In this document: positions 6,324 to 34,323 of the stretch, one piece after another
How the letters are laid out: the number at the start of each line of letters is the position of its first letter
Numbering within the stretch: position 1 is the first letter of the stretch
Source of the DNA: an uncultured bacterium
Lineage (GTDB): Bacteria > Muiribacteriota > Ozemobacteria > Ozemobacterales > Ozemobacteraceae
Assembly (NCBI GenBank): GCA_964483805.1
Contig: CAZADH010000001.1
Location: forward strand, 28,724 to 92,723
DNA length: 64,000 bases
Direction: 5' to 3'
Translations under genes and position numbers: made by a program
Notes under the pieces: model-generated
What the model was told of the DNA's origin: nothing
Seen by the model: only the letters and a program-made list of their open reading frames with translations
Databases searched by the model: none

Positions 6324-7970
6324 ATGTCGAATCTGTTGAAAATGATCGGTGCCGCGCTCTGTCTGTACCTTTTGTTCTTCCACGCCATTGGCGATCTGCC
6401 GTTGATCGACCCCGATGAACCGTTCTACGGCCAGGTGGCCAAAGAGATGGCGCGGGGTGCAGGTTGGCTGACGCCGCACTACGACGGCAAGGTGTTCTGG
6501 GACAAACCACCGCTCTATTACTGGTTGTCGGGTTACACCACGGCGGTGTTCGGTGCGAATGGATTGGGGGCGCGTCTGCCGGCGGCGGTGGCAGCCGTGC
6601 TGCTGACCCTGCTCGTGGGTGCCTGGGCCGCCGCGGAGTTCGGTGCGACGGTGGCTGTTTTTGCGGCTGCGGTGTTTGCCACGTGCCTGCACGCGATCAT
6701 CTTGTCGAAGGCTGCGGTGACCGACATGGTGCTCGCGCTCAACCTGGCGAGTGCTTTGTATTGCTATCGGTGTTGGTTGCGTGCCGAGGGTTCCGCGACC
6801 TACGTGTGGGCAGCGGCCTTCGGGGTGGCGGCGGGGCTGGCCCTGCTGACCAAGGGTCCGCTGGCCTTCATTCTGCTTGCCGTTGCCCTGACCATTCACC
6901 TGGTGACGTCCGGGCAGGTGGCGAAGCTCGAGCGCGGTGGGGCGACCGGGGTCGGCATGGCCCTGGTCGTCGGTCTGCCGTGGTTCATGACAATGTATGG
7001 TGTTCATGGCGATTCGTTCGTGCAGAAGTTCATCATCGCCAACAACTTTGGCCGGTTCTTCAGTGCCGAACACCCGGAGATCACCGGGGGCTGGTACTCG
7101 TACCTGATGAACTTTCCGACGTTGCTGCTCTTCTTCTTCCCGTGGAGCCTGTTTCTGCCCCAGGCACTGCTGCACGCCTGGCGTCGCGACGACCCCGATG
7201 CGCGGTTGCCGTTGATCTGGCTGGTGACCGTTTTTGCGTTCTTCTCGACTGCGAAGACGCAGTTGGTCACCTATATCTTTCCGCTGTATCCGGCGGCCGC
7301 GGTGCTGGTCGGGCGCTATTGGCACGACGCATTGGCGGCCGATCACGCACCCGCCGGTTTGCGTCGCGGCGTGCTGGGGGTCGTTGGTTTTTCGGCGTTT
7401 CTCGGCATTGGTCTGGCCGGCACCGCGGCGGCAAAGTATCCGGGGGCTGAGTTGGTTGGCCTGGGCCTCGGGTTGATTGCCGTGGCGGCGAGCGTGCTGG
7501 CACTGCGTCAGTTCGATGGCTACGTCGGAACCGCAGGTGCGGCGGGCCAGAGTGGTGGCGCGGTGATCTTCCAGCCGCGGCCCGCGGTGTTCTGGGCGTT
7601 GGCGGTCGGCATGGTGCCGTTCGCGGTCTACCTGATGAGTGTGCTGTTTCCGCGGGCCTTGCCGTTTGTCAGTACCGATGAGTTGGCGCGGGTCGTGCGC
7701 TCACGGTTTGCTGCCGCCCAGGTCGTGGCGTTGAAACTGGGGCATCGCACCAGCCTGCTCTACAACTTCGACTTCCAGCCGATGCCGACCGAGAGCATCG
7801 CCGAAGCGCGGCAGCGCTTTGCTTGTCTTGGCCCGGTGGTGGTTTTGTGCCAAGACAAGTTCGTCGACCAGGTGGCGTCGGCAACGGCGCCGGTCGCGCG
7901 GCAAGGCAAGATCGTGGCCTTGGCCAACACGGCGGCGTTGGCGGCCGCACAAGAGAACTGCGTGCGTTGA
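6324..7970 (+). CDS. Family GT39/GT83 glycosyltransferase (ArnT/PMT-like 4-amino-arabinose or mannosyl-transferase family), polytopic membrane protein
   Basis: N-terminal DPDEPFYGQVAKEM...WDKPPLYYWL motif typical of ArnT/PMT enzymes, with many hydrophobic helices. Confidence 0.8.
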   Translation: MSNLLKMIGAALCLYLLFFHAIGDLPLIDPDEPFYGQVAKEMARGAGWLTPHYDGKVFWDKPPLYYWLSGYTTAVFGANGLGARLPAAVAAVLLTLLVGAWAAAEFGATVAVFAAAVFATCLHAIILSKAAVTDMVLALNLASALYCYRCWLRAEGSATYVWAAAFGVAAGLALLTKGPLAFILLAVALTIHLVTSGQVAKLERGGATGVGMALVVGLPWFMTMYGVHGDSFVQKFIIANNFGRFFSAEHPEITGGWYSYLMNFPTLLLFFFPWSLFLPQALLHAWRRDDPDARLPLIWLVTVFAFFSTAKTQLVTYIFPLYPAAAVLVGRYWHDALAADHAPAGLRRGVLGVVGFSAFLGIGLAGTAAAKYPGAELVGLGLGLIAVAASVLALRQFDGYVGTAGAAGQSGGAVIFQPRPAVFWALAVGMVPFAVYLMSVLFPRALPFVSTDELARVVRSRFAAAQVVALKLGHRTSLLYNFDFQPMPTESIAEARQRFACLGPVVVLCQDKFVDQVASATAPVARQGKIVALANTAALAAAQENCVR

Positions 7971-9269: not shown

Positions 9270-10610
9270 TCAGTATTTGTAGATGCTGCCGCCGATGTAC
9301 TCGCGGATGAGCGCGTCTTTGGGGACGACGCTCTCGTCCTGCCAGTCATGGAAGGCGGCGAGCATGTCATGCACCCGCTTGGCGCGAATGAAGGCGTCCT
9401 GCCGCTTGGGTTCGGCGCGGTAGTCCTGAATGAAGTCGGGGAAATACTTGAACAAGTGCTTCTTGTAGATCGGCAGTTCGTAGGCGAGCGAGCCGTCGAG
9501 GATATGATCGACGGTGTCGATGAACGGGATGATGTGCTGGATTTCGCTGCGGCGCACGTAATGCCAGTGTTCGAGGGTCTGCCGCGGGTTGTAGCTGCGG
9601 TGCCAACTGTCGCGGACCATGCGGCGGAGCAGCCGCACATCGGCCCAGCGCAGGAAGTTGCCGGTGTGGTCTTTGATCTGGCACAAACTTTCGATGTAGA
9701 GCTTGAACTTCTTGGCGGCCGGGACGCTGTCGGTCATTGGCCCGTAGAGGCCATGCAGGCTGTCGAGCAGCACGATCTGGTGCTTCTCAAGTTTGAGCGG
9801 GTCGGTGTCGAGCTCGCGCTTGCCGGTCTTGAAGTTGTACCGCGGCATCTTGATCGTCTTGCCCTTGAGCAATTGCGACAGGTGCGTGTTGATCAGTTCG
9901 AGGTCGAGGGCCTGCGGGGTCTCGAAATCGTAATCGCCGAACTCGTCGCGCGGATGGTGCGACAGATCGAAGAAGTAGTTGTCGAGGTTCATCGCGACCA
10001 GTTCGTATCCCCGGGCCTGAAGCTGCTCGCCCACCTTGATGGTGGTCGTCGTCTTGCCACTGCTGCTGGGGCCGGCGATGATGACAATGCGGATCTCGTC
10101 TTTGCGGTCGAGGATCTTGGAAACCGCCGCCTGCACGTCAGCGGAGTACTTTTCGGTGACCTCTTGCACGAGGGCCGGATACGAACCGTCTTCAATGCGC
10201 TCATTGATCTTGGCGATCGAGTAGCAGTTGTGGTCGACGGCCCACGACAGGATCTGCCAGATTTTCTTGTACGGGATATTGCCGGAGGTGGCGCTGTATT
10301 GCTCTTTGCCGCGGCGCAGCTTGGCGTGTTCGTAGCGGAACAGAATGAACGCCTTGGCGGTGCGGGCGTGGCCGTCTTCGATCAGTTCACGTTCGATGAT
10401 GTCTTGAATCTCTTCGACGTTGGGCAGAATCGGGGGTTGCTTGGTCAGTTCGAGGTGGTGCACCACCTTGTCGGCAAGGATCTCGGCCAGTTTGCGATCG
10501 CTGCCGCCGACTTCCTGCGCGGCCTTGAAAATGGCTTCGACGATCTTCTCTTTGTCGAACGGAACAACCGAACCGTTGCGTTTGATGACCTTTTGAATCG
10601 AACTGTCCAT
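9270..10610 (-). CDS. ATP-cone domain fused to a uridine-kinase/phosphoribulokinase-family P-loop kinase
   Basis: NrdR-like ATP-cone at the N-terminus (IKRNGSVVPFDKEKIVEAI...) followed by the Walker A motif IVIIAGPSSSGKTTTT. An alternative upstream ATG exists at 10643. Confidence 0.7.
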   Translation of the reverse strand: MDSSIQKVIKRNGSVVPFDKEKIVEAIFKAAQEVGGSDRKLAEILADKVVHHLELTKQPPILPNVEEIQDIIERELIEDGHARTAKAFILFRYEHAKLRRGKEQYSATSGNIPYKKIWQILSWAVDHNCYSIAKINERIEDGSYPALVQEVTEKYSADVQAAVSKILDRKDEIRIVIIAGPSSSGKTTTTIKVGEQLQARGYELVAMNLDNYFFDLSHHPRDEFGDYDFETPQALDLELINTHLSQLLKGKTIKMPRYNFKTGKRELDTDPLKLEKHQIVLLDSLHGLYGPMTDSVPAAKKFKLYIESLCQIKDHTGNFLRWADVRLLRRMVRDSWHRSYNPRQTLEHWHYVRRSEIQHIIPFIDTVDHILDGSLAYELPIYKKHLFKYFPDFIQDYRAEPKRQDAFIRAKRVHDMLAAFHDWQDESVVPKDALIREYIGGSIYKY

Positions 10611-10703
10611 GGGTGGCTTCACTCCTTGCCTTGATCTGTGCAACCCGATTCGCCACGCGAAATCTTTCTCAGCCTAGCCAAGCCGGGGCACGTTGTCAAC
10701 TGT

Positions 10704-10776: not shown

Positions 10777-11754
10777 ATGTTGAACATCCTGGCGCAGATT
10801 GGGGCACGCTGGGCCGGTACACCGCTGCCGGCACCGACGCGAGTGCAGTTCGAGGTGGCGAATTGCTGCAACCTCGCCTGTCCGATGTGTCCGCGCGACC
10901 AGTTGAAACTGCCGCAGACCATCATGCCGCTCGAAGTGTTTCGGGCCGGCCTGGCGTCGTGCCCGCCCGGCTGCAAGATCACCCTGACCGGTTGGGGCGA
11001 ACCGCTGCTGAACCGCGATCTGTTCACGATGGTGCGGGAAGCGCGCGCCCGCGGGCACCAGACTGCGTTCACCAGCAACGGTATTCTGCTCGACCGCCAT
11101 CTCGATGCCATTCTGGATTCGGGTCTCGATGCGTTGTCGGTGTCGCTCGACAGCACGTTGCCCGATGCGCACGGGCACGGCGATGCCTCGAAGCAATTGG
11201 CGAATCTGCAGGCACTGCAGGCACGGGCCCGCGAGCGCGGCCTGCCCTGCCCCACCCTGTCGTTGTTGACGACGTTGCAGGATGACGGGGGCCGTGGGGC
11301 CCTCTCGGTGGTCGAGGCCGCGGCGCGCCTCCGGGTGGCGCGGATGGTGCTGGTGCGCCTCAATATCTGGAATCCGGCATCGGGGCTGAAACGCCCGGAT
11401 CTGGTGACTGAAATACGCAATATTGCCCGAATCGAGCGGGCCGCACGTCGGCACGGTCTACGCGTCGATCACAACGGCGCATTCTTCACCGGGGTGCCGC
11501 GCGTGCTCTACCGTCTGCTTCGGCCGTGGCTGTACCGGGGTGATACCGTTTGCCCCAAGCCGCTCGACTTTCTCTATGTGCGCGACAACGGTGATGTGAC
11601 GCCGTGTTGCGATCTTCCCCACAGTGTCGTCGGCAACGTGATGCGCGAGCGGTTGCTCGACATCTGGAACGGCGCAGCGGTGGCCCGGTTCCGCCAGGCC
11701 ATGCCCGAGCGCTGCCGTCATTGCGATCATCTCTTCCTGCGACAGAAATACTGA
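10777..11754 (+). CDS. Radical SAM enzyme with a C-terminal SPASM/twitch Cys-rich domain
   Basis: CxxxCxxC motif (CNLACPMC) and a C-terminal cysteine cluster (CPKPLDF...TPCCDLPH...CRHCDH). Confidence 0.8.
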   Translation: MLNILAQIGARWAGTPLPAPTRVQFEVANCCNLACPMCPRDQLKLPQTIMPLEVFRAGLASCPPGCKITLTGWGEPLLNRDLFTMVREARARGHQTAFTSNGILLDRHLDAILDSGLDALSVSLDSTLPDAHGHGDASKQLANLQALQARARERGLPCPTLSLLTTLQDDGGRGALSVVEAAARLRVARMVLVRLNIWNPASGLKRPDLVTEIRNIARIERAARRHGLRVDHNGAFFTGVPRVLYRLLRPWLYRGDTVCPKPLDFLYVRDNGDVTPCCDLPHSVVGNVMRERLLDIWNGAAVARFRQAMPERCRHCDHLFLRQKY

Positions 11755-11797
11755 GTATTTACTCCACTGTCGTGGGTGCGAACCCGAGGTCGAAACC

Positions 11798-13237
11798 ATG
11801 AAAATCACTTACATCGCCCCGCCGCCCGAGGCCGGAAAACGTGCCGCCGAGCGTGTTGCCGGTTGTGCCCATGTCATCTACAACGTGCCGAACATCTACG
11901 TGCTCTGGGTGGCGGCCGTGCTCGAGAAAGACGGCCATCAGGTGCGGCACGTCGATGCTGCCCTCGAAAACTGGTCGCCGGAGCGGTTCCGCGAGTTCAT
12001 CAAGGCCGACGACAGCGATGCGTATTATTTCTATTCGGTCAACCTCGCCAAGGAACTGGACATCGCGACGACCCGCATGATCCATGAGGTTCGCGGGGGC
12101 GTGCCGGTGATCTTCACCGGTCCATCGCCGTCCGACAAGGTCGACGATTTCGTGGTCGATGCCCACACCTTCGTGGTGCGCGGCGAGGCGGAGGTGACCA
12201 CCCGCGAACTGGTGCGGGCGTTGCGTGACAAAACCCCGTTGGCCGGGGTCGATGGCATGAGCTGGCGCGACGGCTCCGGCCCGGTGCAGCACAACAAACC
12301 ACGGGCGCTGATCGAGAATCTCGATGAGATACCCTTCCCGGCGCGGCATTTGATCGACCGCGAAGCGTATTTCAACCCGAAGCTTGGCGTGCGGCCGTTC
12401 ACCTCGGTGATGACGTCGCGGGGTTGTCCGAACCAGTGCATCTATTGCGTGCCCAGTTCGGTGACTTTCGCCGCCGAGCTCGAGAACAAGCGGTATTTTG
12501 GCTGCAAACCGCGCGTGCGTGTGCGCAGCATCGACAACATCGTCGCCGAGTTCGAGCAACTGGCCCGCGAAGGCTACAAGGGCATCAGCATTCAAGACGA
12601 CCAGTTCGCGTGGGGGACCGAGCGCACCGTCGAGTTGTGCCGGCGCCTCGCTCCGCTTGGCCTGGCGTGGGGCTGTTCGTGTCGCGCCGACCGGCTCAAC
12701 GAGGCGATCATCAAGGCGATGGCGGCAGCCGGTTGTAAATACATCGACATCGGGGTCGAGTCGTTCGATCCCAAGGTGTTGCGTTACATCAAGAAGGGTT
12801 ACGACGATCCGAAGATGGTCGAGCGGGTGATCAAGCTGATCCAGAAACATGGCGTGAAGGCGAAGATCAACATCCTCTTCGGCGCCAGTCCGCTCGAGAC
12901 GAAGACCACGATCAAACGCACGATTCAAGAGGTCCGCCGCATCGGCCCCGATCAGGTCATGTACGACATCGTCAATCCGTTCCCGGGCACCGAGTTGTAC
13001 AACCTCGCCAAGAAAGAGGGCTGGTTCCGCTACGGTGATTATGTGCCCGCCGACGTCGGCAAGCACAGCATCATCCAGTTGCCGCACCTCAAACCACGCG
13101 ACCTGGAGCGGGCGATCCGGTACGCCAACATCACCTTCTTCTTCAGCCCACGCTTCTTGTTCAAGAACATCGTGGCGCTGCGCAGCCTGACGGCCCTGAA
13201 AAACTCGCTGGTGGCGATGTATCGCAAACTCGTGTGA
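11798..13237 (+). CDS. B12-binding-domain radical SAM protein (class B)
   Basis: N-terminal cobalamin-binding-like Rossmann region followed by TSRGCPNQCIYC. Confidence 0.85.
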   Translation: MKITYIAPPPEAGKRAAERVAGCAHVIYNVPNIYVLWVAAVLEKDGHQVRHVDAALENWSPERFREFIKADDSDAYYFYSVNLAKELDIATTRMIHEVRGGVPVIFTGPSPSDKVDDFVVDAHTFVVRGEAEVTTRELVRALRDKTPLAGVDGMSWRDGSGPVQHNKPRALIENLDEIPFPARHLIDREAYFNPKLGVRPFTSVMTSRGCPNQCIYCVPSSVTFAAELENKRYFGCKPRVRVRSIDNIVAEFEQLAREGYKGISIQDDQFAWGTERTVELCRRLAPLGLAWGCSCRADRLNEAIIKAMAAAGCKYIDIGVESFDPKVLRYIKKGYDDPKMVERVIKLIQKHGVKAKINILFGASPLETKTTIKRTIQEVRRIGPDQVMYDIVNPFPGTELYNLAKKEGWFRYGDYVPADVGKHSIIQLPHLKPRDLERAIRYANITFFFSPRFLFKNIVALRSLTALKNSLVAMYRKLV

Positions 13238-13285
13238 CCGGGCGGCCATAACGGCCGAGGTGACAGAGACTGGTGTGTAAATACA

Positions 13286-14383
13286 ATGAGTGACATCAAC
13301 AGCCAATCGGGAGCGGCGGCCCCCTTGCCGATCGTGACGCCACTGAAGATCAGTGTCGTCGTGCCGGTCTACAACGAAGAACGCAACATCGCCGGCCTGA
13401 CCGCGAGTTTCGACCGCCTGGCCCTGGGCGACGACGACGAAGTGCTTTTTGTCGACGACGGTTCGGCCGACCGGTCGTTCGAGTTGTTGAGCAACTACGT
13501 GCAGGGCAAGCCGCGGGCGTTTCGCCTGGTGCGGTTGCCGGCAAACGTGGGGCGGGCCGAGGCCTTGAATGCCGGCGCCCGGGAGGCGAAAGGTGACGTG
13601 CTTGCGTTCACCGATGCTGACGCGCATCCACCGGTCGATTGGCTGCAACACGTGCGACGGTGGTTCGCCGATCCGACCGTCGTCGCGGCTGGCGGGGCGT
13701 TTGCGCCGTCGAATCCCGATGAGGGCCTGGTCGGTTGGTATCATCTCGGCGATCGGGTAATGAACGAGATTCTCAGCAAGGGGCTGACCGCCAACAAACT
13801 GTCGGGTGTGAACTCGGCGGTACGGCGCGAGGCGTTGCTGAAGGTCGGCGGTTTCCGCCGCGAGGCCTGGTGGGCCGAAGATTCTGACCTGTGCTTCCGG
13901 CTCAAAGACCTGGGGCGCATCCACTACGATTCCAGTGTGGTGGTGACCACGGCGTATCCGGCCACGGTGGTCGAGATCTGGAAGCGCAAGTGGATCTGGG
14001 GCCAGGCCATGGGCGTGAAGTTCCGCCGCGAGGGCGTGCCCGAGCCGCGCCTGCTCATTCGGCCGACCGTCATCACCGGGTTGACCGGGGTGCTGGCGAT
14101 GCTGCCGTTTCTCGACGCGCAACAGCGCCGCACCGTGCTGCTGACCTTCGTCGCGCTGCAACTGTTCATGACCACCTACATCTGGGGGCGCAGCAAGCGC
14201 TCGCTGAGTCTCGGTGAATGCGCGGCGGTGATCCCGTTGCTGGTGTTGCGCGAGGTCGCGTACGTCGGCGGGTTCTACGACGGTCTGTGGCGCGGCGACG
14301 CGGTGACGAAGCGCGCTTCGTGGAAGCCGATGGTTGCCCCCGAGAACCCGGTCGCCACGGCGACCGAAACGGAAAACAGGTAA
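13286..14383 (+). CDS. Family 2 glycosyltransferase with a C-terminal membrane region
   Basis: ISVVVPVYNEERNI...VLFVDDGSAD...FTDADA motifs typical of GT2 enzymes. Confidence 0.8.
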   Translation: MSDINSQSGAAAPLPIVTPLKISVVVPVYNEERNIAGLTASFDRLALGDDDEVLFVDDGSADRSFELLSNYVQGKPRAFRLVRLPANVGRAEALNAGAREAKGDVLAFTDADAHPPVDWLQHVRRWFADPTVVAAGGAFAPSNPDEGLVGWYHLGDRVMNEILSKGLTANKLSGVNSAVRREALLKVGGFRREAWWAEDSDLCFRLKDLGRIHYDSSVVVTTAYPATVVEIWKRKWIWGQAMGVKFRREGVPEPRLLIRPTVITGLTGVLAMLPFLDAQQRRTVLLTFVALQLFMTTYIWGRSKRSLSLGECAAVIPLLVLREVAYVGGFYDGLWRGDAVTKRASWKPMVAPENPVATATETENR

Positions 14384-14391
14384 TAACACGC

Positions 14392-15888
14392 ATGCGCGTT
14401 CTTCTCATTGATCCGCCCTTCTATCGCCTGATCGGCTTCACCAATCGGTATTACCCGATGGGCTTGTGTTCCCTTGGGGCGCATCTCGAGCGGCTGGGGC
14501 ACACGGTCGCCGTGCACGACCACGACGCCAACCTGGCGACCGGTCGCATGGATTACGCGAACCAGACCTGGGCGTATCAGGAGTTCGTCAAGCTGTTGCA
14601 GAATCCGGATCACCCGACCTGGCGCGAGATCGTGCAGCAGGCGCGGGAGTTCAACCCCGACATCATCGGCATCAGCCTGCTGACCCCGAAACTGGGCGCG
14701 GGCGTGCGGGTGGGATTGGCGTTGCGGGCCGCCTTGCCGGCCGTGCCGATCGTGTTGGGCGGGACGCACCCGACGGTGCAGCCCGAGGAGACCCTGTCGT
14801 GGGGCTTTGCCGACATCGTGGTGCGCGGCGAAGGCGAAGAGACGTTTGCCGAGTTGCTCGAGGCGATCGCCGCCGACCGCTCGATGGCCGGCATTCCGGG
14901 GTTGTCGTACCGGGGCGCCGACGGCAAGATCCACCACAACCCCGATCGCAAGTTGATTCAAGAGATCAGCACCCTGCCGGCGCCCGGTCGGCACCTGTTG
15001 AAGAACCTGGCGCGCTACACCGGCGAAGACCTCGGTCTGATCATGACTTCGCGCGGTTGTCCGTACAACTGCCGGTTCTGCTCGAGCAAGTCGATCTGGA
15101 CCCGCCGCACGCGTTTTCGCGCGATCGATGACGTGGCCAATGAGATCGATGAAATACAAAGTCGTTACAACGTAAGCTATATTACCTTCAAAGACGATTC
15201 GTTCACGTTGCGGCGCGAACGCATCCTCGCATACTGCCGTCTGCATCGGCAACGATTTCCGAAGCTGCCCTGGGAATGCGTGACGCGTCTCGACCTGATC
15301 GACGCCGACTTGCTGGCGACGATGCGGGCTGCCGGGTGTGTCACCGTGAAAGTCGGCGTCGAGAGCGGCAGTGCGCGTATGCTCGCGGCGATCGACAAGG
15401 GTGAGGGGTTGGCCGAGATGCGTCACGGGGCGCGGTTGTTGCGCCAGTCGGGGATGTTCTGGAGCGCCTATTTCATCATCGGGTTGCCCGGTGAGACCGA
15501 AGCCGACCAAGATGAATCGGTGCGGGTGCTCGGGCAGTTGGCCCCCGATTTTGCTGCCGTCGGCTGTTACGAGCCGTTCCCCGGCACGCCGATGTTTGCC
15601 GATGGGCTGCAACGTGGGCTGTTCGTGCCGCGCATGAGTGCCGACGAGATTCTGGGCACGCCGCCGGGTGAATACTATCTGAAGACACCGGGCGTTCGTT
15701 CCGACCTGATTTCGCCCGAGCGCTTCGCGCAGCGGGAACGGCACCTCGTGGGCCTGTTTGCTGCGCGGAACCGGCGGGTGCGGGCGGTCGTGCGACGATT
15801 GCGGGCCCGGGTGGCGCAGTATCGGCTGAACCCGCGGATGTTTTTCCGTGACGCGTGGCAGTTCGTCCAGTGGTATCATCACGCGTAG
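14392..15888 (+). CDS. B12-binding-domain radical SAM protein (class B), second copy
   Basis: MRVLLIDPPFY...GLCSLGA B12-like N-domain followed by MTSRGCPYNCRFCSS. Confidence 0.85.
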   Translation: MRVLLIDPPFYRLIGFTNRYYPMGLCSLGAHLERLGHTVAVHDHDANLATGRMDYANQTWAYQEFVKLLQNPDHPTWREIVQQAREFNPDIIGISLLTPKLGAGVRVGLALRAALPAVPIVLGGTHPTVQPEETLSWGFADIVVRGEGEETFAELLEAIAADRSMAGIPGLSYRGADGKIHHNPDRKLIQEISTLPAPGRHLLKNLARYTGEDLGLIMTSRGCPYNCRFCSSKSIWTRRTRFRAIDDVANEIDEIQSRYNVSYITFKDDSFTLRRERILAYCRLHRQRFPKLPWECVTRLDLIDADLLATMRAAGCVTVKVGVESGSARMLAAIDKGEGLAEMRHGARLLRQSGMFWSAYFIIGLPGETEADQDESVRVLGQLAPDFAAVGCYEPFPGTPMFADGLQRGLFVPRMSADEILGTPPGEYYLKTPGVRSDLISPERFAQRERHLVGLFAARNRRVRAVVRRLRARVAQYRLNPRMFFRDAWQFVQWYHHA

Positions 15889-15918
15889 TGAACAACCAAA
15901 GCCAGAGGGTCGTGATCG

Positions 15919-17380
15919 ATGAGTAGTCGCCGCCGTCGCCCGTTGCCGTTCATGCTGCGGGTGCCGCCCAACGCCGAGATGTTGTTTTCGATCGGCATGG
16001 TCGTGCTCGATGCGTTGGTGCTCAACGCCGTGGTGTTGTCGGTGTATCAGTTCTGGTTGACGCCGACCTCGCAGGGCATCTACATCGACGCGTATTACAA
16101 TGTGCGGCTGATTCTTTTCGGTCTGTATTTTGTTTTTGGGGCGCTGCTCACCCGATTCTCGCTGCGCCACGTCGGCAACGTGGCCGACAACTTCTCGGGG
16201 TCGGCGAGTAGTCTGCTGGCAGTGTTTGTCAGTTTCAACCTGCTCTTGTTCCTGTCGCGCGAACTGGCCCGGCAGGCGCACAACTTCCCACGACCGGTGT
16301 TGCTCATGTCGACGGTCGTGGCGATATTCGCACTGTTCTTGTTGCGGGTCGCGTTGTCGTCACTGTTCAAACCGTATCCGCGGTTGCGCCGGGCGTTCAT
16401 CGTCGGCGACGACGAGGAGGGGCGCCGGATTCTGCGGCACATGCACATGAACGGGCAGGAGCGGTTCAAGATCCTGCGGGTGTTCAAGGCGGCCGAGATC
16501 GACCAGTTGGCGGCCGAGGTGGTGTTCCATCGGGTCGACGAGGTCATCGTCACCGATCCGCACGTGTCGCTCGACAAGTTCTGGGCGCAGATCTACTACG
16601 GCCGCAAGGCCGAGCCGCACCCGTTTCGTGTGCGCCTGGCCGTCGATCCCTCCACGGCCACCGGCGTGTTCGGGTTGCGCAGTCTCGACGATCTGCCGCT
16701 GCTGACCGTTGGGTCCGATGCGCTCGGGCCGATCGGTCGATTCGTGAAGCGCACGTTCGACATCTGTTTTGCCATCTTCGCGTTGATCATCACCTCGCCG
16801 GTGTTGCTGTTGACGGCGATCGCCGTGCGGCTCGATTCGCCGGGGCCGATCTTTTACAAACAGAAGCGGGTCGGCCGGTTCGGGCGCGAGTTCTACGTGA
16901 TCAAGTTCCGCTCGATGACCGTCGATGCCGAGAAGGGCAAGGGGCCACAGATCGCGACCGAGCACGATCCGCGCGTCACCCGCATCGGTCGCTGGTTGCG
17001 GGGATTGGGCATCGATGAGCTGCCGCAGTTCTTCTCGGTTTTGATCGGCGAGATGTCGGTGGTCGGCCCGCGCCCGGAGCGACCGTTCTTCGTCGAACAG
17101 CACCCCGAGTTTCAGGGCCGTCGGCTTGCGGTGCGCCCGCTTCGGCTATCACGCGGCTCACCAGCTCACCGGCCCGGGGGTGACCGGGTTGGCCGCGGTG
17201 AATGCGCGCTACTATCTGAAGCTCACCGACAAGGTCAGCTACGACTACATCTATCTCGACAATGCAGGTCTGTGGCTCGACATCAAGATCATCTTCCAGA
17301 CGATCTGGGTCGTGCTGTTTCAGGCCAAGCGGTCGATGAAAGACCCGACCATCAACGACGGTACCAGCGGGGATACCTGA
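15919..17380 (+). pseudogene. Polyprenyl-phosphate sugar phosphotransferase (WbaP/CpsE-like initiating transferase), apparently frameshifted (+1) around 17101-17140. Could be a sequencing error.
   Basis: Frame 1 encodes the transmembrane N-domain and the catalytic core (...DELPQFFSVLIGEMSVVGPRPERPFFVEQ). The conserved C-terminus (RFGYHAAHQLTGPGVTGLAAVN...YDYIYLDNAGLWLDIKII) is in frame 2 (ORF 17126..17380). The frame-1 continuation to 17445 is junk. Confidence 0.65.
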
Positions 17381-17413: not shown

Positions 17414-18046
17414 TCAGGCGCGTGCCGGCGCGGTTGTTTCGGTAAGAAACTCGAGAAACCGCCAGAACCGTTCCCGGAATGCCAGACGCCCCACACCGGT
17501 CGCATTCAGTCGCGGCAGTTCGGTCTCGTGCCAGGTCTCGAGCAATGCTTCGTATTGCATCGCTTCGCGCGATGCGCGTCGCGACATGATCTGCACTTCA
17601 TGGCGGGTCAGGGCGTCGAGCGGCCACGGGGTCGGGCACAGGGCGCGTTCGAGTCGGCGGACGCGCTTCACGTCGGCGGTGAACGGGTAGAGCCGACAAG
17701 ACAGTGGTCGCCAGGCGTGTACGCCGCACCGGCGGGTGCCGCCGAGATTGAGCAGAAAAAGGCAGCGACCGGTGCGGCGGCGCAGGCCCATCAGGAAGCG
17801 CTCTTCCTCGCCGAGCGAGAACGACCAGGCGGCTTGCTCGGCGTTCTCGGCCGTCAAAGGAACCGGCATGATGATCGTTTCGGGGGCGACATGCAGGTGG
17901 TCGCGCAGGCGGCGCAGATCGTCAGGAAAGAGATAGACCCGGTAGGCTCCGCAACACACCGTATGGCAGCGGATACACGGAATATTGCTGCCGGCCGATT
18001 CGGGCCCGCAAGCCGAGGGATTGCTTTCACCGCGCTCGTTGACCAT
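17414..18046 (-). CDS. YkgJ-family cysteine-cluster (CxxCxxCC) protein
   Basis: Motifs CIRCHTVCCGAY...CRLYPF. Confidence 0.65.
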   Translation of the reverse strand: MVNERGESNPSACGPESAGSNIPCIRCHTVCCGAYRVYLFPDDLRRLRDHLHVAPETIIMPVPLTAENAEQAAWSFSLGEEERFLMGLRRRTGRCLFLLNLGGTRRCGVHAWRPLSCRLYPFTADVKRVRRLERALCPTPWPLDALTRHEVQIMSRRASREAMQYEALLETWHETELPRLNATGVGRLAFRERFWRFLEFLTETTAPARA

Positions 18047-20467: not shown

Positions 20468-23400
20468 TCAGCGCGATATGTTGGCCAGCAAGAAGTCGCC
20501 AGACTGGACGACCGTCGAAGTGCCACCGTGGCGGTTGTTGGTGTACGTTGTCAACCGTGCGGCACCGGCAGGAATAACGATCTTCGCTGTGCCCGGACCG
20601 CGGACGTTTGAAACCACGACCTCCACAACGTCCTCCATGGGCCCCGTCCGCCATCCCTGCTGAGAGCGATTACCGGTCCGTGGATTGGTGACGAAGACTG
20701 GGATCTGCCCGGTGGGATGAATCGCTGTAATTGTTGCTGTGAACGATCCGGTGACGTTGGCAAGGTAGACCTGCGGCGACAGTACATACACCCCCTCCGC
20801 GTCGAAACGAAACTTGAAGCGATATCGGCATTGCGTCGGGGTCTCGGCGGCCGACAGCACCTGGAGGGTCAACCGGTCGCCGACCGGTCGGATGGTCCAG
20901 TTGAACACCGTTGGCGTACCCGTGGCCTGCCAGACGCCCTCGTTGGTGACGCCCAGAACCTGAACGGTGTGCGGGTAGGGACTGGGCGCCAGCCCCGACA
21001 GAGCAAGTGGTTGCGCAACCGACCGCCGTGTCGACCAAGCTCCGCTGTCCAGTCGATACACGTAGCCAACCACGTCGGGTCCGCGAACAATGAACTCGGC
21101 AAAATTGAGATTGGTCACGACCGGGGGGCAGTTGGTCAGTTGCGACGTCACCGCTGCGGTCGAGACTGTCCAGTTGAGCACGGTCGGGTTCGATGCCGAC
21201 TGCCAGTTTCCCGCGGCATCGCAACCGATGACGTGCAGCGTGTGAGCGCCAGGCGCGAGGTTGCGCAGGCGAATCGGCGTGTCGATCGGCAGAGGTTCGG
21301 TATACGGATCATTGAGATCGGCCAACCGGTATGAGTATTTGACCACACCTTCGCCGCCGACGTTCAGAACCGCGCTCGTCAGTCGCGTGACCGAATTAGG
21401 CGTGTTGAGCAGCGCCGCGGTCGGCGGCGTATTATCGATGACCCAGGTGTAACTCGATGTATTGCTCTCGGACTGCCAGTTGTCGGACGAGTCGTGCCCG
21501 ATCACGCGCAACGTGTGTGTGCCCGGGGCGATGTTCTGCGCCTGGATCGGCACATTGACCGGCGTGGTGGGGCCAAATGCGGCACCGTCGAGCGAATAGC
21601 GGTACTCTTCGATTGAGTCGCCGGCAAACGGGACCACGACCCAGGAAACCCGGACATTGATCGAGTTCTGATTGGTCATGCTGGGCGGCAGGTTTTCGAG
21701 CCACGCCGGCGCCGCATGTTGGTCGGAGAACCAGGAGAGGCGCGTCGGGGTGTTCTCGCTCTGCCAGACACCGGCGGCGGTCTTGCCGATCACGAGCAGG
21801 TAGTTCCAACCCTCGCGGATCCCTGTCAATACAATAGGTTGCGACACCGGTTGCTCGACCCCGAAGACGGGGGTTTGAGCCGACGCCGAGTCGAGGTAGT
21901 GCGCGTATTTGTAGGCCGTGATGCCTGTGCCGCCGATCGTGATCGAGGCTTCCGAGGCGTTCATGGCGGGTCGACCGGCTGTGATGACCGCAGGGCGCGC
22001 GGTGTTGTCGATGGTCCAGCCGATCACCGTGGGCATCGTGGCCGGTTGCCAGTTGCCGGCGGCATCGACCGAGATGACGGCCACCTGGTGCGCCCCGGCC
22101 GCCAGTCCGGTTAACTGAATCGGCGTGTTCATCGGGAGAGTCGCGCTCCAGGTACCGTTGTCTAGTTGCCACCGGTAACCCACGGCATCGTCGGCATGGA
22201 TGTCGAGCTGGCACGCGGTCTCGGCTGTCATCGATGCCGGCGCACCGTTCACGCGCGCCACCGGAACTTCCGCATCGACGTCGAAACGGAACACCAGGGC
22301 ATTCTCGAGCGGAACCCACACGCCCTGGGCGTTTCCGGCCAAGACCTCGACGACGTGCTGCCCGTTGGTGAGGTTCTGCAGGCGCAACGGCACGTTGATC
22401 GGGAAATCAGCGCTGAACTCCCCACCATCGACACTGAAGCGATAGAACGCAGTGTCGGTGCCATTGAGGACCACCGAGAACTCGCGCTGATTCGTCAGCG
22501 TCGCGACTTCGACGGCGGGGACAACCGTCGGAATCGTGGCCACGCCGGTGATGCTGATCCAGGGGGATGACCGGGCCTTGCCGTTGGTGTCGACCACGCG
22601 GGCGGTCAGGATATACTCGGCGGCCGGGGTCGTCGGCATGCGAAACATGTACGGCGGCGTCGCGACCGCACCCAACCGGATGAAGTCGGCGAAGAACTCG
22701 ACGCGATCGATCGGGGCCTGGGTCGGCGTTGCCAGTGCCGTCAATACAATGTCTGCACCATCGGTGAACAACGACCGATCGGTCGGCGTGACCAACACGA
22801 CGCTCGGCAACTGGTCGCGATGGCGCCAGCCGTCGAGCACGTCGGCATAGACGGTCGGCGAGTTCAGGTTCGCGCAACCCACAACGGTGCCGACTTCCTG
22901 GGCCGCCTTTTGCGGCAGCGTAGCAAAGTCGGCGGGGGCGCTGGCCAGGGTCAGCAGGGTCGCGGCCAGCACGTCGGGAACGAAGGTGCTGCTGGCCGGT
23001 GCCAGGACCATCAGGTTGTCGCCGGCGACCAGATCGAGCGCGCCGCGGAAGCGGGTGTAACCGGCGAGATCGGCCCCTTCGATCAGGGCCGCACCGATCG
23101 CGGTCTTCAGCGGCAGATCCGGGAAAGACGCTTCGGCCGCCCCGTCGATGATCGGCACGGTCTGGCTGATCGTCGTGAGAGGTTGCGTCGCCACGCCGAG
23201 GTTGATGAAGGTCAACGAATACGTGACCGAGGGCGACGATGCCACGGCGCCGGCCACGGCCGCCCGCACCGACAACCGCGACGGCGCAACCGCTGCATTC
23301 GGTTCAAATTCGGACAGGCGCATCTGCATGCGCACGCGCGCCAGGCCGTTGGCCTGCGGTGTGGCCGTCACAGACAGGGCAGCACCATCGGGAGACGTGG

Positions 23401-23506
23401 TGTCGGTCGGGCGCAACTGGCAGCCCAGTTGCATCATGGCGATGAACAATGACAAACAGACGATGAGCAGTCGCGACGGTTTCACAAACAAGATCCTCCT
23501 CGACAA
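20468..23506 (-). CDS. Large secreted repeat protein (about 1012 aa) with about 7 tandem ~95-residue Ig-like repeats; adhesin-like
   Basis: Signal peptide, then a repeated pattern ...Y.Y.LD.G.WS...P..TPI.L..LA.G.HTL.VIG.D.AGNWQ....PT...WT.DNT.P... recurring about 7 times. Confidence 0.6.
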   Translation of the reverse strand: MSRRILFVKPSRLLIVCLSLFIAMMQLGCQLRPTDTTSPDGAALSVTATPQANGLARVRMQMRLSEFEPNAAVAPSRLSVRAAVAGAVASSPSVTYSLTFINLGVATQPLTTISQTVPIIDGAAEASFPDLPLKTAIGAALIEGADLAGYTRFRGALDLVAGDNLMVLAPASSTFVPDVLAATLLTLASAPADFATLPQKAAQEVGTVVGCANLNSPTVYADVLDGWRHRDQLPSVVLVTPTDRSLFTDGADIVLTALATPTQAPIDRVEFFADFIRLGAVATPPYMFRMPTTPAAEYILTARVVDTNGKARSSPWISITGVATIPTVVPAVEVATLTNQREFSVVLNGTDTAFYRFSVDGGEFSADFPINVPLRLQNLTNGQHVVEVLAGNAQGVWVPLENALVFRFDVDAEVPVARVNGAPASMTAETACQLDIHADDAVGYRWQLDNGTWSATLPMNTPIQLTGLAAGAHQVAVISVDAAGNWQPATMPTVIGWTIDNTARPAVITAGRPAMNASEASITIGGTGITAYKYAHYLDSASAQTPVFGVEQPVSQPIVLTGIREGWNYLLVIGKTAAGVWQSENTPTRLSWFSDQHAAPAWLENLPPSMTNQNSINVRVSWVVVPFAGDSIEEYRYSLDGAAFGPTTPVNVPIQAQNIAPGTHTLRVIGHDSSDNWQSESNTSSYTWVIDNTPPTAALLNTPNSVTRLTSAVLNVGGEGVVKYSYRLADLNDPYTEPLPIDTPIRLRNLAPGAHTLHVIGCDAAGNWQSASNPTVLNWTVSTAAVTSQLTNCPPVVTNLNFAEFIVRGPDVVGYVYRLDSGAWSTRRSVAQPLALSGLAPSPYPHTVQVLGVTNEGVWQATGTPTVFNWTIRPVGDRLTLQVLSAAETPTQCRYRFKFRFDAEGVYVLSPQVYLANVTGSFTATITAIHPTGQIPVFVTNPRTGNRSQQGWRTGPMEDVVEVVVSNVRGPGTAKIVIPAGAARLTTYTNNRHGGTSTVVQSGDFLLANISR

Positions 23507-23826
23507 TTTGGGCGGTCGTCCACCCGGGCCGAATACATAGCATGGAACCGGGGTGCCTCGTCAAGTCCGGTTTCTGTGGCTTTCATGCGGTGGCTAAACA
23601 AGCGGATGTCTGCGTGCAACCAACCATAATACGATACGCCTGAGTTCCACAGTGTTGATGCTGGACAACGCCCTGGACCCTGGGATAGAATCATCATCGA
23701 GAAGTTTCGCGGGTGTCCGTTTCACATGCCGAGGGCGGCACGCAGCAGTTTTCGTGTGCGGCGCCACGATTCCTGAACCGGGCAACCAGACACAGGGTAA
23801 CGAGCCACATTTCACGGAGAGCGATC

Positions 23827-26800
23827 ATGCACCCCATCTACACCTCCCGCTGGGTGATCCTCACTGTCGTCTGTTGTATTGCTGCCGCCTTGATCGGCTG
23901 CGCCCTGCGCGGTCCTGAGTCGGCGGGCGTTGGCGTGTCGACCACGCCGGCACCTGCAGCGGTGGCGACGACAGGGGCGGCCGACGTGTTGCTCTCGTTT
24001 CAGGTCTCGACGACGGCGACGCCGACCACCCAGGCTGCTGTCCGGGCGGCCGCAGGGCCGGCGAGCGTGAGATTCCGCCTTCTGACGTTGAACATCGGCC
24101 AACCGGCACTACCGACGATTGCAACAGAACAGACTATTCTTGTTCCCCCGTCCGGGCGGGTTTCAGCGACATTTACCGCCGTTCCGGCACTGCCCACGAT
24201 CGCTCAGGTCGAGGGAATCAACGCCGTGATTGGCTCATACAGCACTTTCCATGGCGCACGCGACCTGCACGTCGGTGCCAATGTGATCACGGTTGCGCCG
24301 GTCGGATCGAACTGGCGGCACGACATCGCTGCCCAGGTTCTGGAAAACGCCATTCTTGATGCGACGGTGTTTGCGAAGCTGACCGCAACGGCTGCCGCGA
24401 CGGCCCTGAACGTTGCGGACGCGATCGATCGTAGCCAGCCGGCAGCCCCTCAGGATGCCGTGCGGGCTTTCGTGAGGGCGGTTGCCCCGCCACGGTGGGC
24501 GCTGTCGGCGGCAACGATTCTCTCCGCGCAGACCCGGGCCCTCGCGGCCGCCGGGCAACCGGCAAACGCAGTGACCATGTGGGTTCCAGGCGACACCTAT
24601 GTGACCGAGAGCTGTAGCCAGGAGAGTCTCGCGCGCATCTGCGGCTGGAGCACGCCCGCCGAACTCGACGTGGTTGCGTCGCTCCAGGCCGATGGAGCGG
24701 GCGAAGGAACGGCGGCCCGCTCATCGACTCGCGCCGTCACCCTGCCCGCAAGCATCGACTGGCGGAACCGAAACGGGACCGATTGGCTGGGCGGCGTGCG
24801 GAATCAGTTTCCCCGCCCCACGAGCGTGGCATTTGCGTGCTGTTCGACGCTCGAGGCCATGGCGCGAATCGACGCGAACCTTCCGGACTTCGACCTTTCG
24901 GAGTGGTTCCTCATGCGCTTCGGTCAGGCCAACGCGCCCGGTCTTCTCGATCAGGGTTGGAGCATCCAGCAAGCGTTGGAAGTACTGAAAACGAGCGGTA
25001 CGGTGTCAGAAAAGACCGTTCCCTATGGCTTGATCCCCTTCTACAATGCGCCGCCCGAGACTTCGCGCCGGTTTCGGGCCGCCAGTTATCAGCTGCTGCA
25101 GGGGACCGACGCCATCAAGCAGGCGCTTCAGGCGGGGCCCGTCATCACCGGCATGCGCGTATACGAGGATTTTGCCAGATACTCGAGTGGGATCTATTGG
25201 CACGCCGAGGGCAGACAGGTCGGGCACCAGGCGATTGTGCTCGTTGGCTACAACGATGCTGACGGGTGCTGGATTGCCAGGAACTCCTGGTCATCGAACT
25301 GGGGAGAGAACGGATACTTCCGCATCCGGTTTGGCGAACTGGGAGCCCGCGCCTATCAGGTCCGGTTTTCGTTCACAGATCCCGTTCCGGCGGCGCCCGC
25401 AGGTTTGACGGCGGTGCCAGGGGATCGCGAAGCAACGCTTTCCTGGTCGGCAACCTCTGGTGCGCGATCCTATACTCTCTACTATGGATCGACCCAGGGG
25501 ACCCGACGGGAAACGGGCGTGCGGGTTGGCGGAGTCACCAGTCCGCATCGATTGGGCGGTCTCCAGAATGGAACGACGTACTACTGTGTATTGACATGTG
25601 AGAACGAAACCGGGGAGTCAGCGTTGTCGCAAGAGATGAGCGTCACGCCTCGAGACCCGGCGGCGCTCATTCCTGCCAATGCTCATGCCGTTGCCGGCGA
25701 CCGCGCGGTCACCGTGACGTGGTCATCCGTGGCGCCGGCTTCGAGTTACCGCCTCTACTGGTCGACAACGCCAGGATCGGCCCGCTCCAGCGGTACCGTC
25801 ATCGATAATGCGAATTCTCCGTTCAGTCACACCGCGTTGGCCAATGGAACCACGTATTACTATCAGGTGACCGCGATCGTGGGCGGCGTCGAGTCGGGTC
25901 CCTCGCCCGAGTTCAGTGCGCGCCCCTGGCCCGGACTCCCGGGCGCCCCCACGGGCCTGCGTGCCGATGCCGGCAACGCACAGACGACCGTGTCGTGGAA
26001 CCCGGTCGCCGGCGCCGATCGCTACAATCTCTATTTCAGCAATGTTGCGACCGTCAACCGCACGAGCACGCTGATCGCTTCGGTGTCGAGTCCGTTCGTG
26101 CATCGGGACCGCCCCAATGGCACAACCGTGTATTACGTCGTCACCGCGGCAAACATGGCCGGGGAGTCGGCGGAATCGACGGCCGCTGCAGCCACTCCCG
26201 TTTTGCCGGCACCGACCGGAGTCAACGTGGTGCGCGGCTCGAGCGCGGTGACTGTGAACTGGTCACCGGTTCCTGGATCATCGGGCTACAACATTTATTA
26301 TAGCGAGTCGCCGCTGGCGTTGCGTACTGCAGGTGTTCCCGTCCGCAACGTGCAACCCGGAACGAGCATCACGGGTCTGGTCAACGGGCGCACTTACTTC
26401 TTTCAAGTCACGGCTCTCGACACCAGTGTCGAATCGGTGGGCTCGATGGTGGCCTCCGATCAGGCCATGCTGGCGCCGGCCAGCAACCTGCGGGTCAGTG
26501 GGACGCGTGGTCGCATCGGCGTCACCTGGGACGCCAACGTGGGCACCACCTACGGTATCAAACTGTACTACTCGATCGACAACGGCACGACCTGGCTTGC
26601 GACCACCCACGTCGAGGGCGCAACAACGGGTATTGCACCGGGAACGAATCAAAGCGTCAACTGGGTGTCGCACCAGGATTTCGCCGCGAACCAGGGGCAG
26701 GTGCGTGCCCGCGTGGTTCTCAACGACGGCGTCATGGATTCTCCCCCGATCGACTCGGGCGCCTTTACCATCGATAACCGGGTCATCGTCACTTCGGTTA

Positions 26801-29010: not shown

Positions 29011-29056
29011 TCGGTCCCGTTTCCCAAACCATCCCTATCGATCTCGGAGACTGCTA

Positions 29057-34261: not shown

Positions 34262-34323
34262 TTGTTTGTGAACGGGCGGCTTCTTCGGCCTCGAAAGAGT
34301 TCGGGGCGACAGGTGGTGCAAGC

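Follow-up and report, generated by a model that had tools for sequence, protein, structure and literature searches.

A putative envelope-glycan operon with radical SAM tailoring enzymes in an uncultured Ozemobacteraceae bacterium

What could be made by three radical S-adenosylmethionine (SAM) enzymes that are encoded side by side with two glycosyltransferase-type enzymes? This question is raised by a five-gene block (g1 to g5, positions 10777–17380, all on the plus strand) of an uncultured Ozemobacteraceae bacterium, which we analyzed within a window of 64,000 nucleotides (nt; ~62% G+C) of contig CAZADH010000001.1 (GenBank assembly GCA_964483805.1), the window being the whole stretch of DNA under study. 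Radical SAM enzymes are known to tailor sugars of antibiotics (GenK, AprD4, BtrN and DesII) and of lipid head groups (HpnJ and calditol synthase). From homology and gene neighborhood, it is probable that the operon makes a short polyprenyl-linked sugar unit that is remodeled by the radical SAM enzymes, each step of this pathway being less certain than the whole. The operon thus appears to be of an envelope-glycan type, with unusual radical SAM tailoring and with a conserved, uncharacterized pair of a radical SAM enzyme and a glycosyltransferase. The original prediction knew of no characterized pathway with these genes in combination. In agreement with it, our literature searches found neither a characterized envelope pathway combining a B12-type radical SAM enzyme with a glycosyltransferase nor tested radical SAM tailoring of carrier-lipid-linked envelope glycans, and none of the five proteins reaches an NCBIfam equivalog cut-off, so that no known pathway can be assigned to g1–g5.

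The five genes are g1 (10777–11754; Radical_SAM and SPASM domains), g2 (11798–13237; B12-binding and Radical_SAM), g3 (13286–14383; a family 2 glycosyltransferase, GT2), g4 (14392–15888; B12-binding and Radical_SAM) and g5 (15919–17380, interrupted; a polyprenyl-phosphate sugar-phosphate transferase, PGT, with a Bac_transf domain), all with Pfam matches above the gathering score. The three radical SAM enzymes carry CxxxCxxC inside PF04055 matches of 58 (g1), 72 (g2) and 82 (g4) bits, against a cut-off of 29.5. As originally described, all five genes are present in a tight cluster on one strand; the gap of −1 nt included in that description does not hold, since the real gaps are 43, 48, 8 and 30 nt from g1 to g5 and g4 starts at ATG 14392. 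This start is backed by homologues and by the gene calls of a Logan contig (L001), which is identical to the window here and agrees with our gene calls. The grouping exceeds chance, because the g1-g2-g3 and g4-g5 adjacencies each recur in other genomes. In a sequence scan, promoter- and terminator-like sites occur in the block at chance counts with no excess of terminators inside, and co-transcription of g1–g5 is therefore predicted to be plausible. The region also shows long antisense open reading frames (ORFs), for example 11759–14389 on the minus strand, of the shadow kind that is usual in high-G+C DNA. Scans with Rfam models and for tRNAs gave no matches, cobalamin riboswitches included, and the PADLOC defense models gave only generic matches to N-terminal cores (pVip, 51 bits at g1 residues 23–132; PDC-M51A, 41 bits in g4).

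The probable roles of g3 and g5 follow from their family membership; all of the radical SAM chemistry is inferred. The product of g5 is a large PGT, with four N-terminal transmembrane (TM) segments, one further TM segment and then the Bac_transf domain, a 4+1 layout of the WbaP/WcaJ type. Its N and C parts score 160 and 46 bits with PF02397 (Bac_transf), and 281 and 59 bits with TIGR03025 (cut-off 296). The 365-aa product of g3 matches Pfam Glycos_transf_2 (98 bits) and also Glyco_trans_2_3 and Glyco_transf_21, and it has two to three C-terminal TM segments, with hydrophobic stretches at about residues 255–331. Its best PDB match (65 bits) is the GT2 6yv7, which we take to be a crenarchaeal membrane mannosyltransferase of N-glycan assembly; DPMS, ArnC and GtrB align to the N-terminal half only. 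Among NCBIfam models, g3 scores 127 bits with MftF (cut-off 280), 85 bits with the arsenosugar-type GT2 model TIGR04283 (cut-off 182) and 24.5 bits with HpnI (cut-off 310). Outside the operon, the window also encodes an ArnT/PMT_2-type glycosyltransferase of the GT-C class (6324–7970, plus strand; 548 aa with multiple membrane spans), which matches Pfam PMT_2 and PMT and scores 150 bits with NCBIfam ArnT, below the cut-off. In four loci (L003, L045, L091 and L092), a PMT_2 GT-C gene is again found close to a member of the g2 or g4 family, and it is through this recurrence that the GT-C becomes a possible periplasmic transferase for the operon product.

The central enzyme of the block is g2, a protein of 479 aa with a B12-binding-like Rossmann domain followed by a radical SAM domain. 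Its cluster motif is CPNQCIYC, and the cysteines C210, C214 and C217 are invariant in the homologue alignment. The best NCBIfam match is HpnJ (TIGR03471; 184 bits against a cut-off of 577.6), which covers nearly all of g2, followed by AprD4 (NF033070; 132 bits, cut-off 500) and BchE (108 bits); the Bacteroidales orthologue of g2 is likewise HpnJ-like, at 189 bits. The B12-binding domain (PF02310) is detected at 40 bits against a cut-off of 32, and several g2 homologues have no detectable domain of this kind. By sequence profile the nearest PDB entry is AprD4 (6fd2; 129 bits). AprD4 is also the top PDB fold found by Foldseek (TM scores of 0.74 and 0.78) for an AlphaFold2 (AF2) model of g2, whose mean predicted local distance difference test (pLDDT) is 89. 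AprD4 is a cobalamin-independent sugar 1,2-diol dehydratase whose N-terminal Rossmann-like domain does not bind cobalamin (PMC12931638). It resembles g2 as the closest solved structure by both profile and fold and as an enzyme acting on a sugar ring; unlike AprD4, to which it is 22–23% identical, g2 has no AprD3-type reductase partner and lies in no aminoglycoside cluster. Sugar substrates for the operon are supported by this proximity of g2 to a sugar-acting enzyme, and by BtrN and BlsE among the weak matches of g1.

The closest g2 homologues (52–55% identity) are found in Brocadiaceae, which are anaerobic ammonium-oxidizing (anammox) bacteria, and in other Planctomycetota. A genome scan yielded 80 loci; with those of earlier look-ups included and duplicates taken out, there are 56 in which the g2 orthologue is at least 38% identical. 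Of these 56 non-redundant loci, 41 have a GT2 gene no more than 300 nt from the g2 orthologue (34 downstream and 7 upstream), often abutting it. In four further loci a GT4 gene stands directly downstream, and a small PGT or a GT1-PGT fusion adjoins that GT4 in L003, L050 and L065. The g2-GT2 pair occurs in Bacteroidales (Muribaculaceae, Porphyromonadaceae, Tannerella and Paludibacteraceae), Planctomycetota, WOR-3, Nitrospirota, a gammaproteobacterium and Methanosarcinales, and the partner GT2 takes two forms, a membrane form of 330–365 aa, as in g3, versus a soluble form of ~250–290 aa in Bacteroidales. The Planctomycetota GT2s that follow g2 orthologues are 36–39% identical to g3. In Brocadiales the gene order is purF, a g1-like gene (37% identity), variable genes, a g2-like gene (52–55%), a GT2 gene (36–39% to g3) and purM. 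The variable genes are small and include mobile genes and toxin-antitoxin or abortive-infection types (DUF433/PIN, DUF6036/AbiEii and DUF2971; L085 9187–9814, L086 7189–9939 and L002 8637–9995); the Brocadiales module tolerates insertions between its g1-like and g2-like genes.

Several other loci place g2 relatives among glycan genes. In an Omnitrophota locus (L011) the order is GT4, Wzy_C, GT4, acetyltransferase, g2-like and GT4. A Methanosarcinales locus (L045) has UbiA, DUF362, PMT_2 GT-C, GT4, membrane GT2, g2-like and g1-like genes in this order, with AglB/STT3 ~2.8 kb downstream on the opposite strand, and it repeats the combination found in the window, where a PMT_2/ArnT-like GT-C (6324–7970) accompanies g1, g2 and g3. 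In a Methanosarcinales metagenome-assembled genome (MAG; L012, 226–7250), the g2 orthologue is followed by genes for a sugar epimerase/dehydratase of the short-chain dehydrogenase/reductase (SDR) type, a second B12 radical SAM enzyme, a split thiamine pyrophosphate-dependent E1-like enzyme, a DJ-1/PfpI protein and a cupin, a gene set that resembles branched or deoxy nucleotide-sugar tailoring. We also observed tandem arrays of five to eight B12-binding radical SAM paralogues, ~30% identical to g2 and g4, in an uncultured bacterium (L061) and in a Methanocellales MAG (L068, 4064–18963); GT2-like genes are interspersed in the former array and stand at the locus edge in the latter. Two glycan loci that are unrelated to each other have genes for DUF362 proteins close to members of the g2 or g4 family (L045, 5419–6474; L091, 3206–4612 and 14554–15624).

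The pairing of g2 with a GT2 also invites a different explanation, in which the genes remodel a glycolipid head group in the manner of the hopanoid enzymes HpnI, HpnK and HpnJ, which act in this order, or of archaeal calditol synthase. In that case, a membrane lipid alcohol would receive its sugar from g3, the ring of this sugar would be contracted by g2 to give a head group of the cyclitol type, and g1 and g4 would be responsible for further changes. The likeness is real in several respects. In both cases a GT2 goes together with a radical SAM enzyme bearing a B12-binding-like domain, and HpnI and HpnJ attach a sugar that is then rearranged by radical chemistry; the tight two-gene unit of radical SAM enzyme and GT2 also mirrors hpnI/hpnJ (PMC13459092). 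Of the NCBIfam models, HpnJ matches g2 best, with an alignment of nearly full length, the Bacteroidales orthologue behaves in the same way, and g3 and its relatives pass the threshold of Pfam Glyco_transf_21, a ceramide glucosyltransferase-like family. However, the scores lie far below the equivalog cut-offs, at about one third for HpnJ (184 versus 578 bits) and still lower for HpnI (24.5 versus 310 bits), and the operon has no HpnK. Among the flanking genes scanned there is no HpnK/YdjC deacetylase, squalene-hopene cyclase-type gene or other hopanoid gene. Moreover, the g2 family is also present in Methanosarcinales and in Bacteroidales, and the latter, to our knowledge, do not produce hopanoids. 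The PGT, Wzy_C, GT9, AglB and PMT_2 genes in related loci favor carrier-linked glycans over bulk lipids. Head-group remodeling is thus unlikely to be what these genes do.

A carrier-linked sugar unit is further suggested by the relatives of g4. This protein of 498 aa scores 75 bits with the Pfam B12-binding model (cut-off 32) and 82 bits with Radical_SAM, and the cluster cysteines of its motif CPYNCRFC are invariant in the homologue alignment. Its NCBIfam matches, all under the cut-offs, are ApyD (194 bits), BchE (174), HpnJ (159) and AprD4 (99). The best PDB sequence match is 9ccb, the methyl-coenzyme M reductase glutamine C-methylase QCMT/MgmA (PMC12931638), and the AF2 model (pLDDT 90) is about equally near to AprD4, TsrM and MgmA in fold. 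Like the class-B C-methyltransferases (GenK, Fom3, TokK and QCMT/MgmA), g4 combines a B12-binding domain with a radical SAM core, and some class-B cobalamin radical SAM C-methyltransferases methylate sugar carbons in antibiotic pathways (PMC12931638). Unlike them, it reaches no curated family and is part of an envelope-glycan operon rather than a secondary-metabolite cluster, and its methyl transfer and use of cobalamin are putative. It is a reasonable guess that g4 would C-methylate a sugar carbon. The original prediction of two B12-dependent methylase-type enzymes was too strong, since the nearest relatives of g2 are HpnJ and the cobalamin-independent AprD4, and the guess of C-methylation is reasonable for g4 only.

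Orthologues of g4 show ~40–44% identity. In Brocadia sapporoensis the g4 orthologue is directly followed by a PGT gene, at a locus apart from g1-g2-g3. In a Phycisphaerales genome it lies amid GLF, GT2 and GT4 genes, and in one 7.5-Mb genome amid GT2, GT4, methyltransferase, SDR epimerase/dehydratase, another GT2 and PMT_2 GT-C genes. On a metagenome contig it is accompanied by Wzy_C, GT9, methyltransferases, GT4, a deacetylase, a small SPASM enzyme, a PGT and a PMT_2 GT-C. By their gene content, the g4-family loci of these three non-Brocadia lineages appear to be of the O-antigen type. The neighbor comparison that had originally been proposed thus shows g1-g2-g3 and g4-g5 recurring as separate modules, and the window joins the two modules that are separate in anammox Planctomycetota, which argues for a shared pathway. 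The GT2, PGT, O-antigen-type and AglB contexts of g2 and g4 relatives also support the initial proposal of a radical-modified glycan or glycolipid pathway. Placement of the radical SAM enzymes in subfamilies by hidden Markov models, a further check suggested at the outset, leaves all of them below curated cut-offs.

A second alternative concerns the state of the cluster rather than its chemistry. The original prediction took g5 as one ORF; alignment with the Brocadia PGT reveals a 37-nt insertion (17140–17176) that splits the reading frame. Frame 1 encodes the protein up to ...QGRRLAVRP (17139) and remains open to 17445, and the C-terminus (GVTGLAAVNARYY...) is encoded in the +1 frame (ORF 17126–17380, with the conserved part at 17177–17380). 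The break falls inside a conserved motif in the same alignment, between RP and G(V/I/L)TG, and the frame through the C-terminal Bac_transf part is not intact in this assembly. In-silico removal of 17140–17176 restores an intact g5 of 474 aa, which matches the Brocadia PGT to the end. The uninterrupted junction (...CGCCCG joined to GGGGTGACC...) was not found among the metagenome contigs searched. The interrupted junction matched one contig (L090) that is otherwise unrelated to the window: positions 17127–17172 (46 nt) are identical to L090 173–218, where they belong natively to a gene for an apparent periplasmic solute-binding protein, and the left flank of the insertion shares 21 homologous nt with L090, with one mismatch. 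The insertion therefore looks like a templated insertion or a chimera, arisen in vivo, in amplification or in assembly. Since the inserted letters are identical to part of an unrelated gene, they are suggestive of a chimeric read or an artefact of assembly, or else of an event that happened very recently.

Taken at face value, this interruption would make the cluster a decaying or inactive remnant, in which the initiating transferase g5 is a pseudogene and nothing is produced any more, regardless of what the genes did ancestrally. The frameshift within a conserved motif of the catalytic domain and the failure to find the intact junction in metagenome contigs speak for such decay. However, g1–g4 are unbroken, and the cluster cysteines are retained; g5 itself, the insertion aside, has its whole length and is conserved; and the inserted letters themselves point to an artefact or a very recent event. 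Furthermore, the sole independent contig of the strain, L001, ends at 17099, just short (41 nt) of the insertion. We consider it quite unlikely that the cluster is a remnant, and an envelope-glycan operon remains our preferred reading.

The third radical SAM enzyme, g1, has 325 aa, the cluster motif CNLACPMC (CxxxCxxC) and Pfam scores of 58 bits with Radical_SAM and 48 bits with SPASM. Its C-terminus holds five cysteines, in a Cx12Gx4C motif with one adjacent cysteine and in a terminal CxxC, and the protein ends nine residues further on; it does not contain the full seven-cysteine SPASM motif (Cx9-15Gx4C ... Cx2Cx5Cx3C ... C) with its two auxiliary clusters. The SPASM label first given to g1 is thus borne out by the Pfam match, with the qualification that the domain is a truncated, twitch-like one, which would most likely hold one auxiliary cluster. 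In the NCBIfam search, for which g1 was scanned as a 353-aa ORF from TTG 10693, the twitch-family model NF033640 matches residues ~256–316 of the 325 aa (284–344 of the scanned ORF), and the best match, a tungsten-cofactor maturase (94 bits, cut-off 380), covers the N-terminal core only; MftC is absent among the best 25 of its 41 matches. Weak PDB matches are 8wm2, BtrN, BlsE and MoaA. The Brocadiales protein encoded between purF and the g2 orthologue is 37% identical to g1 over 308 aa and has the same cysteine pattern, and the surroundings of a g1 homologue in Peregrinibacteria are uninformative.

SPASM enzymes often mature peptides, and the cluster could in principle be a system for ribosomally synthesized and post-translationally modified peptides (RiPPs), in which a peptide or protein would first be modified by g4 (ApyD/QCMT-like) and g1 (SPASM-type) and then receive a sugar from g3. 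Besides this habit of SPASM enzymes, the top matches of g4 are the RiPP enzyme ApyD in NCBIfam and the protein glutamine C-methylase 9ccb in the PDB, and MftF is the best NCBIfam match of g3 (127 bits). These ApyD and MftF scores, however, are far under their cut-offs. Only ~28 residues precede the CxxxCxxC of g1, which leaves no room for a peptide-recognition domain. In the 134-nt leader, the ORFs of at least 20 aa only overlap neighboring genes and have no support, and the search for a short precursor that had been advised found nothing credible in the leader or the gaps. The operon has neither a protease nor a transporter, we know of no role for a PGT in RiPP pathways, and the relatives of g2 and g4 are found in glycan loci. 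A RiPP-type function, judged unlikely in the original prediction, is very improbable. It is likewise highly unlikely that the product is a soluble small molecule or cofactor (a glycosylated redox cofactor, mycofactocin-like, or an arsenosugar) instead of an envelope glycan: the g3 matches to MftF (127 bits) and TIGR04283 (85 bits) and the soluble GT2 of the Bacteroidales pair amid unrelated genes would suit it, but both matches are under the cut-offs (280 and 182), neither other mft genes (MftA, B, D or E) nor an ArsS or ArsM partner came to light, membership in a mycofactocin system is not indicated, g3 and g5 are membrane proteins by TM prediction, and the relatives recur in O-antigen and N-glycan contexts.

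According to the envelope-glycan reading, the sugar unit would be assembled on polyprenyl phosphate as its carrier, on the cytoplasmic side of the membrane, and then exported to an envelope acceptor, for which a surface or S-layer protein glycan, lipopolysaccharide and exopolysaccharide are candidates. First, g5 would transfer a sugar-1-phosphate to polyprenyl phosphate. Second, g3 would add a sugar to the lipid-linked intermediate, or would make a polyprenyl-phosphate sugar as GtrB and ArnC do. Third, g2, perhaps without cobalamin, may catalyze a redox-neutral radical rearrangement or dehydration of the sugar, resulting in deoxygenation or a ring change; its substrate would be either the nucleotide sugar used by the partner glycosyltransferase or the lipid-linked product. 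Fourth, g4, being similar to class-B cobalamin methylases, may C-methylate a sugar carbon. Fifth, g1, a twitch-type enzyme remotely similar to BtrN and BlsE, may oxidize, epimerize or decarboxylate a position of the sugar. Finally, a flippase and a transferase encoded elsewhere would complete the pathway, with the GT-C at 6324–7970 as the candidate transferase.

This scheme has features of two known types of system. In Arn/Gtr systems, the polyprenyl-phosphate sugar made by a GT2 can undergo editing while still lipid-bound, before a GT-C passes the sugar on at a site outside the cytoplasm. Similarly, the window has a membrane GT2 with C-terminal TM segments near an ArnT/PMT_2-type GT-C, a combination also found in L045, and the N-terminal half of g3 aligns with ArnC, GtrB and DPMS. 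In contrast, g3 is nearest to 6yv7, a WbaP/WcaJ-type PGT is present here and absent from Arn/Gtr systems, and the proposed editors are radical SAM enzymes, whereas the Arn/Gtr-type editor is a deformylase. The Wzx/Wzy O-antigen and exopolysaccharide loci share with the operon the WbaP/WcaJ architecture and TIGR03025 signature of g5, and relatives of g2 and g4 are found in loci with Wzy_C, GT4 and GT9. Unlike such loci, the operon encodes neither a flippase or polymerase nor a chain-length regulator or export proteins, and it combines one glycosyltransferase with three radical SAM enzymes.

Several results weigh against a remodeled, carrier-linked sugar unit as the product. No substrate, product or transcript has been observed, and all five proteins stay below the curated family cut-offs. 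The operon contains no flippase, polymerase or ligase, and with g5 frameshifted in the assembly the pathway may be inactive here. A PGT gene lies within 10 kb in only 3 of the 56 g2 loci, and in Bacteroidales the g2-GT2 pair stands alone amid unrelated housekeeping genes, its GT2 being soluble. In Foldseek comparisons, the models of g2 and g4 lie about as near to AprD4, which is free of cobalamin, as to TsrM, MgmA and OxsB with bound cobalamin; because AprD4, TsrM and MgmA are ranked too closely, enzymes with and without cobalamin are not told apart by fold. That the partner GT2s of different phyla are orthologues was also considered and is not supported: a profile of the non-planctomycete partner GT2s gives g3 77 bits, inside the range of unrelated control GT2s (46–104 bits). 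Our claim on the pair is therefore limited to adjacency.

The block is bounded upstream by a minus-strand gene (9270–10643) for a 457-aa fusion of an ATP-cone with a uridine-kinase/PRK-type nucleoside kinase, which diverges from g1 across the 134 nt and is not kept beside g1 homologues elsewhere, and downstream of g5 by a minus-strand gene for a CxxCxxCC protein (17414–18046). Elsewhere in the window, three tandem plus-strand genes (23713–29010, 28802–34261 and 34258–39483) encode giant paralogues of 1741–1819 aa. The first of them, the one scanned with Pfam, has a papain-like C1 protease domain, fibronectin-III repeats and a C-terminal FGE-sulfatase-type domain, and a 1012-aa Ig-domain protein is encoded beside them (20468–23506, minus strand). 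From their domains, these four proteins are likely to be surface proteins and are possible glycosylation targets. A further plus-strand gene (53664–56162) encodes an 832-aa fusion of the sulfur-relay type, with pyridine-nucleotide disulfide oxidoreductase, rhodanese, TusA and DsrE domains.

Beyond this operon, we tentatively propose, as a possibility that is rather doubtful at present, that a g2-type enzyme with an adjacent glycosyltransferase is a widespread route to skeletally altered sugars of envelope glycans (deoxy, C-branched or carbocyclic) in anaerobic Bacteria and Archaea, which is here joined to a module of a cobalamin-dependent C-methylase and a PGT. If this is true, radical C-C and C-H chemistry would act on carrier-linked sugars of the cell surface. 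Among the bacteria with the g2-GT2 pair are gut Bacteroidales (Muribaculaceae, Porphyromonadaceae and Tannerella) and anammox bacteria, and the S-layer glycan of the latter carries methylated sugars. The S-layer O-glycan of Kuenenia is heavily methylated, with a methylated N-acetylhexosamine (HexNAc) and a putative dimethyl-deoxyhexose whose structures were left unresolved there (PMC5088730), and the proposed route could also explain these two residues. Nothing in our results links these genes to that glycan; a radical SAM origin of some of its methyl groups is a testable idea. If the operon works as proposed, it would give a genetic handle on the unusual surface sugars of anaerobes, and it would name concrete enzymes with which new radical sugar chemistry may be sought in vitro.

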